Below the pieces are notes generated by a model that did not search any database, was not told the DNA's origin, and saw nothing but the letters and a program-made list of their open reading frames with translations. Of a DNA stretch of 20,000 nt, positions 4,624 to 17,117 are shown one piece after another; positions within the stretch are counted from its first letter, which is position 1, and every line of letters begins with the position of its first letter. Made by a program: the position numbers and the translations under genes. The stretch is from an uncultured virus (IMG/VR IMGVR_UViG_3300032030_002667) (lineage: Duplodnaviria > Heunggongvirae > Uroviricota > Caudoviricetes). The stretch is taken from IMG/VR virus record IMGVR_UViG_3300032030_002667. One strand, written 5' to 3'.

Positions 4624-4854
4624 ATGAAAACTCCAGTAAAAATTCAATACTTCATCGCCGTCGCTGCCTTCCTGGCAGCGGTCGGCTTTGGTATTGCAGG
4701 ATTCATTGTACCGCCTCCTGGACAGGTACATGACTCTGTGCTTTATCTCATAGCACAATTCCTGCTGCTCACTGCATCTATACTCGGTGTAGGTGCTATG
4801 TTCGCATCTCAGAAATTGAGTATCAAACAATCTCTTGAAAAGAAAGATCTATGA
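4624..4854 (+). CDS. Putative holin (two TM helices)
   Basis: 76 aa with two hydrophobic segments separated by PPPGQVHDS and a charged C-terminus, upstream of the endolysin. Confidence 0.6.
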   Translation: MKTPVKIQYFIAVAAFLAAVGFGIAGFIVPPPGQVHDSVLYLIAQFLLLTASILGVGAMFASQKLSIKQSLEKKDL

Positions 4855-5144
4855 ATTATCAACAAATCAATTTCACCTTGGACAATGGCAAGTATGTTGC
4901 CTCTGTTCAGCTGAGCGATGTGGCTGCACTGCACATCGAAAGGGAAGCCGCTGGCAATTTCAGTGCAAAGCAATCATCGCTGCCGGCTTCCTACAATCCT
5001 GCCTTTGCCAATCTCGAAGGGCTGTCTGATTGCTGCTTCATGCCTTCTGTGATGGACTTTGAACTCGCATTCGCTGTCTATCCTAAGTTCATCGAACTGC
5101 GCTCAGCTACACCGATCAAAAAAGCGTATCTGATTACACAGTAA
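4851..5144 (+). CDS. Hypothetical beta-rich protein (97 aa)
   Basis: ATGA overlap with the preceding gene, suggesting translational coupling. Confidence 0.7.
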   Translation: MNYQQINFTLDNGKYVASVQLSDVAALHIEREAAGNFSAKQSSLPASYNPAFANLEGLSDCCFMPSVMDFELAFAVYPKFIELRSATPIKKAYLITQ

Positions 5145-5151
5145 ATCCTAT

Positions 5152-5186
5152 CTCTTAACTCTTAACTCTTAACTCTTAATTCTTAA
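5152..5186 (+). repeat. Heptamer tandem repeat (CTCTTAA)x4 + TTCTTAA
   Basis: Read directly; ends 10 nt before ATG 5197. Confidence 0.9.
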
Positions 5187-5196
5187 CTCAACTCCC

Positions 5197-5925
5197 ATGG
5201 GAATTCTCATCAAATCCTTCTCCACTCAGCCTTCGCTAGTGGGACTGGCGAGGGCTGCCTTGTCAAAGGTATTCAACCCCTCCAACTATTACAGCAAATC
5301 GGAGGTGGATGTGCGTGTCAATGCCAGGCAGCCGGATGTTCATCTGACTGCTACTAACAAGGACACGCTCATGTATAACAATGCGGGCAATCAGGTTACG
5401 CAGGAGCGTGATGTCTATAACGGCACAGCCTTCGGAACAAACAACACGCTCACCAACTACGGTGCCTTCGCTGGCGGACATAGCTGTCAGGTGGGCAACA
5501 GGGCAGCTGCTTTCAATTCAAACAACACAGCATCGGGCACTAACGCCTTCGCTGAAGGTGGTAGTAACACCGCTAGCGGTGAATGCAGCCATGTCGGCGG
5601 TCAGCAGAGCAGAGCTGGCGGTAAGCGGGCTTTCGCGCATGGATATCAGTGCCAAGCTTCAGGAGAAAACTCCATCGCTATGGGCACTGCTCTTCGCACA
5701 CAGAACGATGGTGAAGCTGCCTTCGGACGCTTCAACAGCACTGGTGCCAACATCCGCTTCAGCGTTGGAGGTGGCTCGTCAGACTCGGACAGAAAGAATC
5801 TCCTTCAAATCGATGCAGATGGCACCATCTACATCCTGATGAACGGCACACCCTTGTCACTGCAGGAGTGCTTGAATTTACTGGCTGACAGGATAGACGC
5901 TCTGCAAGGTCCAGGGATAAAGTAA
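5197..5925 (+). CDS. Trimeric fibre/adhesin-like protein with YadA-head-type beta-roll repeats
   Basis: YYSKSEVD fibre-type motif, ~14-aa repeats (NTASGTNAFAEGGS, NTASGECSHVGGQQ, SRAGGKRAFAHGYQ, CQASGENSIAMG), FSVGGG..DRKN motif and a C-terminal coiled coil. Confidence 0.7.
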   Translation: MGILIKSFSTQPSLVGLARAALSKVFNPSNYYSKSEVDVRVNARQPDVHLTATNKDTLMYNNAGNQVTQERDVYNGTAFGTNNTLTNYGAFAGGHSCQVGNRAAAFNSNNTASGTNAFAEGGSNTASGECSHVGGQQSRAGGKRAFAHGYQCQASGENSIAMGTALRTQNDGEAAFGRFNSTGANIRFSVGGGSSDSDRKNLLQIDADGTIYILMNGTPLSLQECLNLLADRIDALQGPGIK

Positions 5926-5950: not shown

Positions 5951-7003
5951 ATGCGTAAGATTAATGAAATCATCGTCCATTGTGCTGCCACGCGTGAAGG
6001 CAGAGACTTCACTGTCGAGGACATCACACGATGGCACAAGGCCAGGGGCTTCGTCACAATTGGCTATCACTATGTGATATATCGTGATGGGAGCATCCAC
6101 GAGGGCCGCCCTCTTGAACAAATAGGTGCCCACTGCGTGGGACACAACAAGCATTCCATTGGCATCTGCTACATCGGAGGCTGCGCCTCTGATGGCAAGA
6201 CACCAAAGGATACGCGCACGCCAGAGCAGAAGGAGGCATTGCTCGCTCTACTCAGGCGTCTCAAAGCGCGGTTTCCCAATGCCACGATACACGGACATAG
6301 GGATTTTGCTGCGAAGGCGTGCCCCTCGTTTGATGCCAGGTCTGAGTTTCGCAGTCTGGCAGTGACCATCCTGCTCGCTTTTTCGTGGATGCTCCTTTCT
6401 TCGTGTCGCTCCACAAAGCGGGTAGTGAAAGAAAAGGTTGAGGTTGCAATGCAGCAGACTGTATCGCAATCAGCCACTTCTTTCGCTACGGACAAGTTCC
6501 TCCAGAACATTGTACTGCATATCGATAGCATCGTGCTTACATCGATGTCTGTGCCGCAGGTGTCCGAAAACGTCGATGGCACAGTGCTTATCGGACGGAC
6601 TTCGGACAGCAGCGGCTTGGAGCCTTGTGCTCGGGAAACTCGCACAAGTGGTTCTTCAGCTAAAGCTTCAGGCGCAGGCGAAGCATCTCTACGCTCAGGC
6701 GCAGGGAAGGCGCTACCGCGCATTGATGTATCTAAGATAAAGGTGAGCGGCATTCGCCTCCAGTCTGTTACTGCTGACAGCTCCAGCTCCACTACAGCAG
6801 TCAGCAGCGAGGGTAATCTACAAGCCAGCGGACGCTCGCTTGCTAAAGCGAAGGAGGCTAAGAAGCCTTCTACGCTTGCATTCTATTGGATAGTATTCTT
6901 AATAATCATCGCCATAGCTGTGGCTGTCGCCTTTGCTGTGGCTTCAAAAGCAAACCCTTTTCGCTCGGCTGTTCGCTTCATCGTACGGAAAGTTTTGACG
7001 TGA
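5951..7003 (+). CDS. T7-lysozyme-type N-acetylmuramoyl-L-alanine amidase (endolysin) fused to a lipobox + C-terminal TM (u-spanin-like) domain
   Basis: IIVHCAAT, IGYHYVI, GAHC-x-G-x-N, SIGICYIGG and GHRDF..KACPSFD amidase_2 motifs (aa 1-130). Then LAVTILLAFSWMLLSSC (Cys152) and a C-terminal hydrophobic helix FYWIVFLIIIAIAVAVAFAVA. Confidence 0.85.
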   Translation: MRKINEIIVHCAATREGRDFTVEDITRWHKARGFVTIGYHYVIYRDGSIHEGRPLEQIGAHCVGHNKHSIGICYIGGCASDGKTPKDTRTPEQKEALLALLRRLKARFPNATIHGHRDFAAKACPSFDARSEFRSLAVTILLAFSWMLLSSCRSTKRVVKEKVEVAMQQTVSQSATSFATDKFLQNIVLHIDSIVLTSMSVPQVSENVDGTVLIGRTSDSSGLEPCARETRTSGSSAKASGAGEASLRSGAGKALPRIDVSKIKVSGIRLQSVTADSSSSTTAVSSEGNLQASGRSLAKAKEAKKPSTLAFYWIVFLIIIAIAVAVAFAVASKANPFRSAVRFIVRKVLT

Positions 7004-7613: not shown

Positions 7614-8285
7614 ATGACCCCCATTATTAAAAATCCATTTTCAAAACTTTTGACTGTAAGAGATTTGGCCACAAAATCATACCAATTAAAATCTCAAAAC
7701 AAAAATTTAGTTAAAATACTTATCATTGATGATAATGATTTCGAGTATGAAAATGAGATGAGAGTATGTGGTTTTAATATTAATTGCGTGCGGGACCTTG
7801 AATACTTTAATATGGCTGAACCTTATCATATTATTATCAGTGATATTACAGGAGTAGGGAAAAAACTAAATTGTAAATACGAAGGTGTAGGGTTAATAAA
7901 TGCTTTAAAAAAACAATATCCATATAAGCTTTACGGAGTATATACTGGCAATAAGGTTAGTATTGACATTGCTACAGTGTTAAAAGATGTCAAGATTATC
8001 ACTAAAACCGGATTTGATAAAGACGATTGGGAATCTTTACTTGACGAATTCGTAAAAGAGAATAATGATCCGAAAACATGGTGGCTTAAATTACGAGGGG
8101 CTCTGCTTGATGAGGATATTTCATTATATGAATTAACATTATTAGAACATAAATATGTTAATTATATACTTCATAATAAAACTGATTTCAAAAAATTCCT
8201 TGAAGATAATCTTTCTAATGAATTGAAATCAGTTCTAATAAATATCAATTTTAACTTTAATAATTCAATCTTGTCAATAGCATGA
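7614..8285 (+). CDS. Response-regulator receiver domain protein with unrecognised C-terminal domain
   Basis: KILIIDD acidic pocket, IIISD phospho-Asp, EGVGLI, VYTG and IITK conserved positions; AT-rich. Confidence 0.78.
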   Translation: MTPIIKNPFSKLLTVRDLATKSYQLKSQNKNLVKILIIDDNDFEYENEMRVCGFNINCVRDLEYFNMAEPYHIIISDITGVGKKLNCKYEGVGLINALKKQYPYKLYGVYTGNKVSIDIATVLKDVKIITKTGFDKDDWESLLDEFVKENNDPKTWWLKLRGALLDEDISLYELTLLEHKYVNYILHNKTDFKKFLEDNLSNELKSVLININFNFNNSILSIA

Positions 8286-9412
8286 TAATATCTCCATTTC
8301 CATATAAAGTCATAGGTACAGATGAGATAAAAGATGGGTGTGTATTTAACATACCAAATTTTTGCGCAAAAAGACAGAAGAGTATGGATTGTAAACTTTT
8401 TTACTCCAAATTGAAATCTTCTATCGGAATTCAGAAATGCCCATTTGGATTTTGTGCCGAACGTGTACAATTTGGGGATCAGGATATTTATTTTACATGT
8501 CTTAATATTGAAAAACATAGCAAAAAGAAAGATGCACTTCGACGAATAAAAAATACTGATTTTAATCCTCGTATTTCACTTTCTAAATACGAACAGTTAA
8601 AATCATTGTTTAAGGAATCTTTGACTAGTAATTGTAATGTGCCAGTTGAATTTAATGAGGCAAAACAATCTGCTCTCTTACAAAATGAACGTGAAGCATT
8701 AGATAACGCAATACATGAGATTAACAACTTGACTAATCAATTAATCAGCAGAGCTGATAAGTTATCTGATGAAGTATCTGGGAATTTTGATAGAGAACAA
8801 ATCGAAGTTTTATCGAAAAACATCTATGCATTATCTAATCTTTTATCAATAAGGCTTGGTTCTTATAATCTTGAAGTTGATCCTTCCATTATCAAACAAA
8901 CAACGGAAATAGATATTGCAATTTTTAAGAAAATAGAAAAAGCATATAAATGCTTACAAGACAGTATAAATAAGAATAAAATTCAAGTTAACCTAAAAGG
9001 GAATAGTTATAACAAATACAAATCTGGTTCCATGCTTGAAATAGCATTCTTTATTATTTTGGAAAATGCAGTAAAATATTCTCCTAGGGGAGAAACTGTT
9101 GATGTTAATTTTTCAGAGATTGATGATTCATTAACTGTTACTTTTATTAATTGGGGGCCTAAACCCAGTGATGACGAAATAAAAAAATTGAATATGCGAG
9201 GATATAGGAGTAGAAATGTTCAAAATCAAACTGACATTCAGGGAAGAGGCATCGGTTTGTTTTTGGTACAACAAATATGTGATGCATACAATATCCAATT
9301 TCAATATTCAATCGAAAAAACATATAAAAAATTTAATGGAATTATATATGCTCCATTTTCTATTAAACTCATGTTTAAAAACATGATAGTTAATGGTTCA
9401 CAAATAAATTAG
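8282..9412 (+). CDS. Soluble sensor histidine kinase with Cys-rich (PocR-like) N-terminus
   Basis: H box AIHEINN, N box ILENAVKYS, G1-like NWG, G2 GRGIGLFLV; no TM helix; ATGA overlap with the receiver gene. Confidence 0.85.
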   Translation: MIISPFPYKVIGTDEIKDGCVFNIPNFCAKRQKSMDCKLFYSKLKSSIGIQKCPFGFCAERVQFGDQDIYFTCLNIEKHSKKKDALRRIKNTDFNPRISLSKYEQLKSLFKESLTSNCNVPVEFNEAKQSALLQNEREALDNAIHEINNLTNQLISRADKLSDEVSGNFDREQIEVLSKNIYALSNLLSIRLGSYNLEVDPSIIKQTTEIDIAIFKKIEKAYKCLQDSINKNKIQVNLKGNSYNKYKSGSMLEIAFFIILENAVKYSPRGETVDVNFSEIDDSLTVTFINWGPKPSDDEIKKLNMRGYRSRNVQNQTDIQGRGIGLFLVQQICDAYNIQFQYSIEKTYKKFNGIIYAPFSIKLMFKNMIVNGSQIN

Positions 9413-13688: not shown

Positions 13689-15460
13689 TTATATTGATTA
13701 ATAAACAGAGGGCTGTCCTGAAGAAGGGCACTTCTTTTGATTTCATCTCCGAGAACCACTACTTCACGGGGGCTGACAGTTATACGCTCTCCATTACGTT
13801 TCCTATCAAGGGATGTGCTGAGAACATCGCTATCTTCGGGCATATCTACCGAAAGGACTTCAACTTCGACACGGAGCTGCTGGACTGTGAGATACATGAC
13901 CAGGACTTCCACAAGTACGGCTCTGTGTCCATCGTGTCTGTATCTGACTCTGAGGTGAAGACGCAGTTCCTGGAAGGACGCTCTGCATCTAACTATCACT
14001 CTTCCCTTGATGAAATCTATATCAATGAGCTGACGATGCCGTCTCTGCATGATCAGGCGCATTGGCAGGCTTCACATTACTTGCGGCCCTATGCCGAGCA
14101 GATGCGGGATGGCAATTACCTCGGCTATGTCTGCCCGCCGTGGGTGAACAACACTTCCGGTAACATTCAGAATCCGATGGGGGCGTATGGCTCCATCTAT
14201 TACTATCAGGGTGGAGATCCTTCTTATGACCCGCCAATCGTTGGCTTCCCGTTCCTTATTGAGGTGATTAAGCAGGTGCTTTCGCGCTCTGGCTATCACT
14301 ATGACCTTTCTGCCATCGAGAACTCGGGTTTCTCTAACCTTATCATCTGTCAGGCTTTTCCCTATGTGTGGCACATGCCTTACATGAATCAGATCCTGCC
14401 GCATTGGACGGTGAGCGAGTTCCTGGAGCAGCTGGAGCTATTCCTGAACGGCACCTTCGAGATTGACCACAAGGCGCGTGAGGTGTCGTTCTCGTTCAAT
14501 GCGGGTTCTCTTGCTGGGATGAATATAGTGCAGATTGACGAGGTCCTTGACAGTCACTCGGTGGAGATTGCCAAGGAGGAGGATATCAAGGACAGCTATG
14601 TGGAGCAGAAGAACATCGCTTATCAGGACTGCGAACATCACATGTGGAAATTCTATTCTTGCGATTGGGCTACGTCATGTCTTCCGATGCAGGTTTACGC
14701 CAATTATGCTGCTATGAAGAGTCAGCTCAATAGTCTGCTTGTCTGTGCAGGGCCTCTGAATGCATGGCAGTATCGATACATCCACTATTGCAGGGAGGAA
14801 GATACGCACTTCGTGCTGAAGTGTGACCATACTGAGACTGTTGGGGATGTCATTCATCACTATATGCACATCCAGCCTGTCAATATGTTCAGGCCACGCA
14901 TCTTCAACGGCAATGACAATGCTGATGTGGTGGAGCTGGGCATCGTGCCGGCTTGTATTGACTTTACAGACGAAGTAAATGGCAGTATGCTATTTGTTGA
15001 CTGCGGCACGCTGGGGGATGACGTGGAGGATGCGGAAGACAGGGATGAGAACCAGACGCAGGCTGTCAATACGCTTGCCATCGGAGAACAGGAGAAGAAG
15101 GAGGAGTACTTCGACAAGATTCATGTGGGCTTCTGGGATGGTACTTACATCAAGTATCATCCACAAATGCCACACCCGTATGTGGACAGGCATGAAGTGA
15201 GGCCTGACAATACTTATACTTACAATATGTATTCCATGCGGCTTGCTGGCAAGGAAATGGCTACCACAAGGACTACGCATTTCTTCGTGAATCAGCAGCG
15301 GAAGTTCACGTTCTCGTTCCTCGCTGATACTGTACCCGATGTGCATAGCATCTTCCTCATTCACGGCAAGAAGTACCTGGCTGAGAAGATAGCAGCGACC
15401 TTCTCTGCCGAAACAGGAAGGTCGCGTGTGTTGAAGCTTGTCTGCTATCAGATGTTCTAG
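13685..15460 (+). CDS. Probable phage tail tip/baseplate hub protein
   Basis: 591 aa, ATGA-coupled to the tape measure gene; N-terminal ENHYF..SYTLSITFP motif typical of post-TMP tail proteins. Confidence 0.65.
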   Translation: MIILINKQRAVLKKGTSFDFISENHYFTGADSYTLSITFPIKGCAENIAIFGHIYRKDFNFDTELLDCEIHDQDFHKYGSVSIVSVSDSEVKTQFLEGRSASNYHSSLDEIYINELTMPSLHDQAHWQASHYLRPYAEQMRDGNYLGYVCPPWVNNTSGNIQNPMGAYGSIYYYQGGDPSYDPPIVGFPFLIEVIKQVLSRSGYHYDLSAIENSGFSNLIICQAFPYVWHMPYMNQILPHWTVSEFLEQLELFLNGTFEIDHKAREVSFSFNAGSLAGMNIVQIDEVLDSHSVEIAKEEDIKDSYVEQKNIAYQDCEHHMWKFYSCDWATSCLPMQVYANYAAMKSQLNSLLVCAGPLNAWQYRYIHYCREEDTHFVLKCDHTETVGDVIHHYMHIQPVNMFRPRIFNGNDNADVVELGIVPACIDFTDEVNGSMLFVDCGTLGDDVEDAEDRDENQTQAVNTLAIGEQEKKEEYFDKIHVGFWDGTYIKYHPQMPHPYVDRHEVRPDNTYTYNMYSMRLAGKEMATTRTTHFFVNQQRKFTFSFLADTVPDVHSIFLIHGKKYLAEKIAATFSAETGRSRVLKLVCYQMF

Positions 15461-16587
15461 AGTATGGATGAAGCCAGAACTTCAGAATGTCGTTGAACTG
15501 TGGTCTTCAGAATCTTACAATAAATTTGAGTCGTTTTTATGTCACTATGGCCTAACATCCGTGAAATGTCCTCTATTGGCACGTCATGGGCTAAGGCCAA
15601 TGTGGCAAAGCTGTGACGAGCCAAATGGAAGGTCAGACTCTTCTTGAATCCGCATTGCACCTCAATGACATGAAGATAGTCATTCGCCTTCTGATTCGTT
15701 ATCTTCGGCAATTTGAAATCGTATTTCTTCAAGACATCCATGGCTGGTTTCAAAATGGGTGTATAAAACTCTGTTCCTGTCTTTAAGCGTTCACTGTCTA
15801 TGTAGTACAGACGTCCAATTTTGTGTGTCATTTTCTTAAAGTCAAAGCGTTGTACATCTGCATAAGCCATACCAGTATAGGCTGCAAAGATAAATAAGTC
15901 ACGCACGCGGTCTAACTTGTCTATTAACTGTACCTTGCGCATTTTCAGTAATTCCTGTTCTGTTAGCGGAGTCCTTGGCTTGCTATGCCCACGAGAAATC
16001 TTGCAATACTCATAAGGGTCATGTTCTATAATTTCATTGAGCTTCAGAATGCGAGTGTACTTCTTGATGCGCTTGTGATAGTTCCATATAGTTACTTCTG
16101 TACGCTCTCCTGTGTCGTGGAGCCAACGGTCAAAGGCTCGGATATTGGCAGGAGTGAGGTCAGCTATTGTCTTGATCTTACCATAGGACACTAAGGTATC
16201 AAGAACAAGTTTTTTGTGACGCAATGTGCCTTCCCGCAATTTCTCGCGTTTGATTTCACTACGCATGAATTCAATAAAATCTCGTTCAAGGGGAGTTTCT
16301 TTAACTTTTTTACACTTCTCTTCTTCAATATAGGCATTGAAATTTTCGATAGTCAAATCCTCACCAAGAATCCTCATGGCACGGACAATTTCCTCATAGT
16401 GCTCTAGCTGAAGTTCAAGTTCTCTGCTGTGCTGATAGGTTTTCCAACCTGCTTTTGTAGTTGAGCCGACAACAATGTACTTACGAACATTCCTATCAAG
16501 GTAAACCCTAATCTCAACTTTGCCACGTCCTTTCTTTGCCGCGACACCCTTCCTGTCAAAAATGACTGATACGTTTTTTTGCTGCAT
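15457..16587 (-). CDS. Tyrosine recombinase / phage integrase (Bacteroidetes type, arm-binding + SAM + catalytic domains)
   Basis: RDLFIFAAYTGMAYAD, RLKT, TFHLARHSFAT, MLGHSDIKTTQIY; adjacent to a tRNA 3' end. Confidence 0.95.
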   Translation of the reverse strand: MQQKNVSVIFDRKGVAAKKGRGKVEIRVYLDRNVRKYIVVGSTTKAGWKTYQHSRELELQLEHYEEIVRAMRILGEDLTIENFNAYIEEEKCKKVKETPLERDFIEFMRSEIKREKLREGTLRHKKLVLDTLVSYGKIKTIADLTPANIRAFDRWLHDTGERTEVTIWNYHKRIKKYTRILKLNEIIEHDPYEYCKISRGHSKPRTPLTEQELLKMRKVQLIDKLDRVRDLFIFAAYTGMAYADVQRFDFKKMTHKIGRLYYIDSERLKTGTEFYTPILKPAMDVLKKYDFKLPKITNQKANDYLHVIEVQCGFKKSLTFHLARHSFATLALAHDVPIEDISRMLGHSDIKTTQIYCKILKTTVQRHSEVLASSIL

Positions 16588-16866: not shown

Positions 16867-16880
16867 AATTGCGTTTTCTG

Positions 16881-16954
16881 AGCCTCTTGTCGGATTCGAA
16901 CCAACGACCCCGAGATTACAAATCACGTGCTCTGGCCAACTGAGCTAAAGAGGC
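16881..16954 (-). tRNA. tRNA-Thr (anticodon TGT)
   Basis: Reverse complement GCCTCTTTAGCTCAGTTGGCCAGAGCACGTGATTTGTAATCTCGGGGTCGTTGGTTCGAATCCGACAAGAGGCT: acceptor stem, D arm, TGT loop and TTCGAAT T-loop. Confidence 0.97.
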
Positions 16955-17069: not shown

Positions 17070-17100
17070 CAAAGGTACAACTTATAATTCAAAATTCAAA
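17070..17100 (-). promoter_or_regulatory. Bacteroidetes promoter for ffs-tRNA-Thr
   Basis: -7 box TACCTTTG (17070-17077, minus strand) and TTTG (17097-17100) 19 nt upstream. Confidence 0.75.
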
Positions 17101-17117
17101 ATTCAAAATTCAAAATT
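17086..17117 (+). repeat. Heptamer tandem repeat (AATTCAA)x4 + AATT
   Basis: Read directly. Confidence 0.9.

Follow-up and report, generated by a model that had tools for sequence, protein, structure and literature searches.

A T7-lysozyme-type zinc amidase is joined in frame to a lipoprotein-like protein in a lineage of gut Bacteroidales prophages, and this endolysin-lipoprotein fusion is real and under selection. The gene lies in the window (the whole stretch of 20,000 nucleotides that was analysed), which sits in a 66.5-kb virus record holding a complete Bacteroidales prophage of ~62.5 kb. As noted in the preliminary description of this DNA, the amidase frame runs without a stop codon into the lipoprotein-like half, positions 5951-7003 forming one ORF of 350 amino acids. 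The relevant features of the window are:

5951..7003, + strand: fused amidase-lipoprotein ORF (P0001), a stop-free 350-aa translation; fused in 25/25 distinct coding sequences (CDS) available as DNA
5951..6358, + strand: T7-lysozyme-type zinc amidase, residues 1-136 (Amidase_2 and 1lba matches; its end is the stop position of split relatives)
6350..6403, + strand: internal lipoprotein-type signal, with Arg134 as the n-region charge and Leu136-Ser151 as the h-region (KD15 peak 2.19)
6395..6406, + strand: lipobox LSSC, with Cys152 as the predicted lipidation and cleavage site (from the conservation of the Cys)
6407..6889, + strand: predicted periplasmic region (from alignment A4 and column statistics)
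6890..6946, + strand: C-terminal TM helix, residues 314-332 (KD19 3.09; a helix in both AlphaFold models)
6947..7003, + strand: basic cytoplasmic tail and stop codon (from the count of K/R versus D/E)
4624..4854, + strand: holin-like gene, 76 aa with two TM segments (Phage_holin_3_6 at E 0.047, below the Pfam cut-off)
15457-16587: integrase
16879..16903, no strand assigned: right attachment repeat of 25 bp at the 3' end of tRNA-Thr(TGT) (16880-16954), with an identical 25-mer at contig 813-837

The junction (6330-6410) was checked on assembled contigs: an independent contig from another study (run X2, record 17) matches positions 5958-6501 with 0 differences, and a relative's contig from an RNA library (X15, record 1) also bridges it. 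Searches with the C-terminal half matched 338 and 343 proteins, and the best 120 of each, a set leaning towards close relatives, comprise 221 distinct proteins. Among these listed matches, 212 carry amidase end and lipobox on a single polypeptide and 2 more do so by inspection, while the 7 non-fused ones are 2 N-terminal fragments and 5 proteins without an amidase (P0125, P0171, P0126, P0202 and P0203). Looking for the coding DNA of P0125, P0171 and P0126 gave no match. The fusion is present in 23/23 distinct CDS with DNA, and with L109 and L110 in 25/25, so that the count of fused against split homologues suggested in the preliminary description speaks for a conserved fusion and not an error. 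The six most distant fused CDS tested have 52–66% identity overall and 34–55% in the C-terminal half. The isolate carrying the fusion is Prevotella sp. P4-67 (protein OYP70666.1), and other relatives of the gene come from Bacteroidaceae and Prevotellaceae MAGs. The ESM Atlas holds Amidase_2 clusters of 307–317 aa in Bacteroidota, which may be the fused family described here or other fusions. Profile A1 matched 9/401, 9/301 and 6/179 genomes; two of its weak matches, L103 and L104, were rejected as housekeeping loci, and the weak matches L102 and L105-L107 fall outside the inspected set. Candidates for independent fusions were likewise rejected: the INPHARED amidases H11, H19, H33 and H39, which seemingly run past the amidase, all have a stop, and 15 long-frame amidases and 4 further regions (one of them a repeat of L116) are extended at the N-terminus only.

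Pooled pairwise dN/dS, a measure that takes no account of relatedness, comes to 0.12 for the amidase. Residues 134-350 as a whole give 0.49, with 0.46 for the signal region, 0.36 and 0.48 for two conserved blocks of the periplasmic region, 0.75 for the loop and 0.42 for the C-terminal TM helix (TM2) and tail.

The N-terminal half matches Pfam Amidase_2 (PF01510) over residues 2-125 (E 2e-16, 60.8 bits against a cut-off of 26) and the T7 lysozyme structure 1lba over residues 5-131 (E 1e-31). It belongs to the same amidase_2 fold family as T7 lysozyme (gp3.5), with the zinc ligands and catalytic Tyr aligned, but differs from it in that the fused protein does not end at the normal C-terminus and goes on into a signal and another protein. 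The zinc and catalytic set is intact (His10, Tyr39, His116, Lys122 and Cys124, whose roles we take to be those of their T7 lysozyme counterparts), and the amidase site motifs are found in 203–206 of the 206 full-length members among the matches listed. The N-terminus of the fused protein is an amidase beta strand and its earliest hydrophobic stretch begins at residue 136; the N-terminal signal-anchor-release helix that defines a SAR endolysin is absent from it. The end of the amidase had been placed at CPSFDA (~6337), which has to be corrected: the commonest end of the non-fused amidases lies at 13 residues, counted from the catalytic zinc Cys (EYxxL followed by the stop), and corresponds to Leu136 here. 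RSEFRSL is therefore the amidase's own C-terminus, and the second half is attached where a stop would normally stand.

The same C-terminus, in its EY[R/K]xL form, supplies the basic n-region residue of the internal signal. Among the matches listed, E[YF][RK] stands ahead of the h-region in 208/212, and zinc Cys and lipobox Cys are spaced by 28 in 210/212, the two exceptions having long Ser/Ala/Thr linkers without loss of frame. The lipobox consensus used was [LVI][ASTVI][GAS]C following a hydrophobic stretch. In the 212/212 motif-parsed proteins among the matches listed, the lipobox reads FSSC (108), LSSC (76), LSAC (20) or otherwise (8), position -3 being F or M in 111/212, plus one consensus-conform ISAC. 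Some catalogued spanins likewise deviate at -3, according to the available part of PMC6139136. With P0020 and P0129, where it was recognised by eye, the lipobox Cys proposed in the preliminary description is conserved in 214/214 fused proteins among the matches listed, and Ser or Ala occupies -1 in all 214 of them, though most neighbouring h-region positions vary. Two members, L045 and P0123, have linkers of 59 and 93 aa between amidase and signal, both staying in frame and retaining the lipobox and a Lys ahead of the h-region. The linkers in these two (L045:4117-5403 and P0123) are of the Ser/Ala/Thr/Pro type, and a Cys-rich insert is seen within the amidase. The residues after the lipobox Cys are basic (RSTKR in 179/212 among the matches listed). 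The surface-export motif of Bacteroidota lipoproteins is acidic, so the basic residues fit a lipoprotein that faces the periplasm.

Between Cys152 and the TM helix lie 158 aa with 27% Ser+Thr, in agreement with the Ser/Thr-rich stretch of ~160 aa described previously. Two conserved beta-former blocks in this region (residues 187-197 and 263-270) flank a variable loop rich in Ser, Thr and Gly. TM2, judged by hydropathy only, is found in 212/212 of the matches listed (KD19 minimum 2.18), and K/R exceed D/E in the tail of 211/212 among them. The variable loop carries at least one Cys in 208/212 among the matches listed, whereas periplasmic Cys is absent from 58/58 u-spanins catalogued in the available part of PMC6139136, where this is a trait and not a formal criterion. 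Searches of the C-terminal half against Pfam, PHROG, NCBIfam, PDB sequences and INPHARED gave no match at a useful level, and an Atlas search gave scores of only 0.85–0.86, to unnamed clusters. The AlphaFold2 model of the full protein (34 alignment rows) has a mean pLDDT of 53.7, with residues 151-307 below 50, and that of the mature half (32 alignment rows) a mean of 51.4; neither model has strands of the beta-rich fold expected of u-spanins in the periplasmic region, which is modelled at pLDDT <50. In P0124 and P0172 the periplasmic part is only 57 residues long and both conserved blocks are absent, and these proteins may represent a natural minimal-length variant or a decayed copy. On its sequence features the lipoprotein half is a probable u-spanin, with the periplasmic Cys, the weak models, the shortening in P0124/P0172 and the lack of direct similarity to a tested spanin as the evidence against.

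The relatives of the C-terminal half support its place in a family of lipoproteins with a C-terminal TM helix adjoining endolysins in Bacteroidales lysis cassettes. In the sister prophage L061, the amidase (76% identical) stops at EYSNI and is followed by TAA, 12 nt and an in-frame ATG, which opens a second gene for a 187-aa lipoprotein in frame with the amidase gene. A profile made from fused members only scores the split lipoproteins of L061 and L054 at 27.4 and 23.2 bits, against ≤9.9 bits for shuffles (100 shuffles of each of 16 candidates). Those of L056 and L060 were within the shuffle range in the first round and joined the profile after one iteration; L002, L005 and L018 have lipoproteins that stayed outside the iterated C-half profile. 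The split C-half homologues adjoin four unrelated endolysin classes (amidase_2, DUF5675, GH108 and phage-lysozyme). One relative, L053, matches a gene annotated 'spanin' in Porphyromonas phage005, located behind holin and endolysin (30%, E 6e-6). Against the fused-only profile this gene reaches 2.4 bits, rising to 11.0 after one iteration, with a shuffle maximum of 6.4, and its label is a bioinformatic prediction (available part of PMC10367356); the fused family is thereby linked to a named spanin in two steps only, via L053. The split Bacteroidales cassettes (L061, L054, L056/L060, L075, L088-90 and phage005) have homologous holin-like, amidase and lipoprotein genes in the same order, but keep the last two as separate genes, the lipoprotein having its own MK-type start.

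Among the 30 top-scoring amidase loci of a family sample of 401 genomes, one is fused (the centre, in L016's genome), one is unparsed and the others stop normally. In an eighth of IMG/VR, the 80 best amidase loci include no fusion to a lipoprotein; a separate lipobox-plus-TM gene comes next in 21 of these (2 doubtful), 2 have other tails and 1 is unparsed. Taken together, these loci indicate that the split state is common and that the fusion is confined to one group, with its join at the old stop. In the amidase tree the fused and split rows form an open polytomy, with L045 and L015 grouping with the split L088-90, and the C-half tree, which has long branches, is compatible with one fused clade without recovering it (p-AU 0.29), a single origin of the fusion being shown by neither tree. 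Several split pairs (L075, L088-90) have K-H-L or K-Q-L in common between the amidase end and the lipoprotein start, and the fused L109 reads EYKHLFL at the junction; it is plausible that the fusion arose by a short deletion between such repeats. Other arrangements were seen in the course of this comparison. An unrelated amidase (L157:1501-2100) has an 82-residue tail ending in a TM helix, with no lipobox, and represents another type of membrane-anchored endolysin. In L055, L057 and L058 a lipoprotein, a phage lysozyme and a holin-like gene make up a small island, where the lipoprotein precedes the endolysin and no further phage gene occurs within 3 kb, and the microvirus-sized genomes L064 (PQ006540.1) and L065 have the same amidase family as a stand-alone endolysin.

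The prophage encodes a primase, head protease, terminase, tape measure protein and integrase. The 76-aa two-TM gene upstream of the fusion is a holin candidate: its motif is found upstream in 26/29 fused loci, abutting the fusion in 21, and the three loci that miss it are two with only ~1.1 kb of upstream sequence and L017, which has none within 5 kb. An Atlas search with this gene returned unnamed phage clusters at 0.95. PHROG scans of 48 other ORFs gave no match in the lysis category (the 320-aa ORF at contig 8582 was outside these scans and six window ORFs were checked against Pfam only). A scan for lipobox plus TM gave no other spanin-shaped ORF in the contig, and a further endolysin gene was not found in the prophage. 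In the window, a 97-aa gene and a 242-aa YadA-head-repeat gene lie between holin and fusion (4851-5925, ~1.1 kb), as they also do in L023, L024 and L027; between these two genes is a short tandem run of a 7-nt unit in ~6 copies (5149-5190), and similar runs occur at 17085-17115.

We lean slightly towards a reading in which a single precursor receives a lipid and is cleaved by signal peptidase II, yielding a u-spanin and an amidase stub, the stub probably being freed by RseP. Its fuller form, a lysis polyprotein that signal peptidase II splits at an internal lipobox lying 151 residues in and behind a folded enzyme, with RseP freeing the endolysin from its u-spanin partner, we hold to be evenly balanced. 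The stretch 136-151 would act as an internal signal-anchor, leaving the amidase in the cytoplasm while the middle region is carried across the inner membrane, until helix 314-332 would stop the transfer with the basic tail inside. Lgt would then lipidate Cys152 and signal peptidase II would cut ahead of it, giving a lipoprotein attached to the outer membrane through its lipid and to the inner one through its TM helix. This product would have the arrangement modelled for u-spanins, which bridge the outer and inner membranes (available part of PMC6139136), and unimolecular spanins are the only ones used by Bacteroidetes phages according to the available part of PMC12596118. RseP would subsequently cut the stub of amidase plus signal in the membrane to yield an ordinary cytoplasmic endolysin; otherwise the stub would stay tethered. 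Finally, the two-TM holin would let the amidase reach the wall, after whose destruction the spanin would fuse both membranes.

The preliminary description had the amidase tethered to the inner membrane until holin action. A tether is possible, but it need not last, because the stub is N-in/C-out without a periplasmic tail, which is the form that RseP cleaves, and RseP is above cut-off in 3/5 host MAGs examined. RseP is described as cleaving type II segments after periplasmic trimming, remnant signal peptides included (available part of PMC8144685). Release by RseP would give a soluble, canonical endolysin that needs the holin.

The dual-start reading, in which initiation near Leu136-Leu141 gives a free u-spanin and the full-length product is only a membrane-tethered endolysin, is unlikely. 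Both in-frame starts named previously were located, GTG at 6362 and Met147 at 6389, ahead of the Cys152 codon (6404-6406). An in-frame ATG, GTG or TTG lies 9–16 codons before the Cys in 16/25 CDS, but the candidate codon moves (-16, -14, -12, -11, -9), the signal region has none in 9/25 (L017, L037 and L110 among them), and the products would have 9–14 residues there, mostly without a basic n-region. No internal start is conserved. Shine-Dalgarno signals are rarely used by Bacteroidota. The codon for Leu136 (6356 in the window) is CTG in 23/23 CDS and is aligned with the start Met of P0125 and P0171, and the spacing from Leu136 to the Cys (16) equals that from Met to Cys in the split L018 lipoprotein. 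This invariant CTG was nevertheless rejected as a hidden start, for single-codon columns are common (8/56 comparable invariant columns of 4-6-fold degeneracy) and L109 has TTG there. P0125 and P0171, called from a Met at the Leu136 column and having neither amidase nor basic n-region, may be split relatives or truncated calls; since the fused L110 shares the short, 13-residue spacing of P0125, and P0125 is known as a protein only, P0125 is no proof of a split. The 16/25 CDS with some in-frame start do affect the 1:1 stoichiometry of endolysin and spanin proposed in the preliminary description: a second start is possible in part of the members, and we therefore keep this ratio as inference only.

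A fusion that signal peptidase II never cuts, and that remains in the inner membrane with two TM segments and its amidase in the cytoplasm while the outer membrane is broken otherwise or its breakage is unneeded, is distinctly unlikely. In its favour, the literature covered on lipoprotein processing gave no report of signal peptidase II cutting downstream of a folded domain in the cytoplasm, P0124 and P0172 have lost most of the periplasmic part, and the pooled pairwise dN/dS values (relatedness ignored) of the signal (0.46) and middle loop (0.75) are far above that of the amidase (0.12). Against it stand the lipobox Cys with Ser or Ala at -1 throughout the 214 fused proteins among the matches listed, set among mostly variable h-region neighbours, and the finding of no other spanin-shaped ORF in the prophage. 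It is improbable, too, that the lipoprotein half is processed but is not a spanin, serving the envelope in some other way, for example in lysis timing or superinfection exclusion. The periplasmic Cys and the missing beta fold in the models set it apart from the catalogued u-spanins, and it has no direct similarity to any tested one; yet the lipobox and C-terminal TM make up the u-spanin topology (available part of PMC6139136), the family adjoins the four unrelated endolysin classes, and a gene of like shape follows 21 of the 80 best other amidases (2 doubtful).

Programmed frameshifting or early termination at the junction, giving free amidase beside the full-length protein, is very improbable. 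The window has a +1-frame TGA at 6363-6365 (GTGA) resembling the -4 overlaps of split relatives, and a weak terminator-like hairpin at 6358-6375, but GTG occurs at that column in only 4/23 CDS, the codons of the junction show no slippery run, and the hairpin has only 5 pairs, in a region with 6 terminator-like matches against 2.5 +/- 1.9 in shuffles. An assembly error or one-off mutation in a decaying prophage is practically inconceivable: the window does derive from assembly, but the independent contig is identical over 5958-6501, the 25 distinct fused CDS reach down to 52% identity and are joined by the isolate protein, and purifying selection acts on both halves.

As a precursor cut in two, the fusion is predicted from its sequence to work like holin-endolysin-u-spanin lysis, yet its signal is not at the N-terminus of a gene of its own. 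With the u-spanins of the T1 gp11 type (Kongari et al. 2018, available part of PMC6139136) it has in common the lipobox Cys, the periplasmic region, the C-terminal TM and basic tail, and the position of the gene, which closes a holin-endolysin cassette with no two-component spanin found alongside. It differs in that the signal is internal, behind a 135-aa enzyme (the Cys is residue 152, whereas the split homologues have the N-terminal signal on their own gene), in having no sequence link to a tested spanin and in the periplasmic Cys of 208/212 proteins among the matches listed. The spanin gene architectures distinguished in the available part of PMC6139136 are embedded, overlapped, separated and unimolecular, with none fused to an endolysin. 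As in SAR endolysins, the enzyme would be held at the inner membrane before lysis by a signal-like helix, but the anchor comes after the enzyme and would leave it on the cytoplasmic side, while SAR anchors are N-terminal and their enzyme periplasmic (same source, available part). The literature covered on endolysin-spanin fusions, unimolecular spanins and Bacteroides phages, with supplementary tables and subscription papers outside its scope, does not describe the fusion.

Two proteins are made from one bacterial gene by a cut at an internal signal in the case of the FbcH cytochrome b-c1 precursor of Bradyrhizobium japonicum. This precursor differs from the protein described here in being of the signal peptidase I type and neither a lipoprotein nor a phage protein. 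Lysis in Bacteroidota phages is poorly characterised, and the spanins there largely lack functional testing; the present family is a candidate u-spanin lineage whose natural split and fused versions are directly comparable, with Prevotella sp. P4-67 as a cultured carrier. If the proposed processing is true, the fusion would add one more architecture to those of spanin genes and prove by a natural example that a whole cytoplasmic domain is accepted as n-region by Lgt and signal peptidase II (Lsp), which would widen the substrate rules of the bacterial lipoprotein pathway. It would also mean that internal lipoproteins are hidden in proteins annotated merely as 'amidase', to which N-terminal-only predictors are blind, and would show how a phage couples the output of endolysin and spanin. 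Endolysins of the fused type cloned whole as enzybiotics would bring two membrane anchors with them.

The remainder of the prophage holds several genes outside the lysis cassette. An ArdC-type anti-restriction protein (ArdcN plus zincin domain) is encoded at 243-1373. Between the lysis gene and the tape measure gene, a low-GC (29–37%) pair at 7614-9412 encodes a 223-aa receiver-like protein and a 376-aa histidine-kinase-type ATPase, and is likely cargo. Some 20 kb of low-GC cargo lies mid-prophage (contig 13661-35318; L113, L114) and includes an Abi-family gene, two repeated pairs of related secreted-type ORFs, and leucine-rich-repeat-like and lipoprotein sensor genes.
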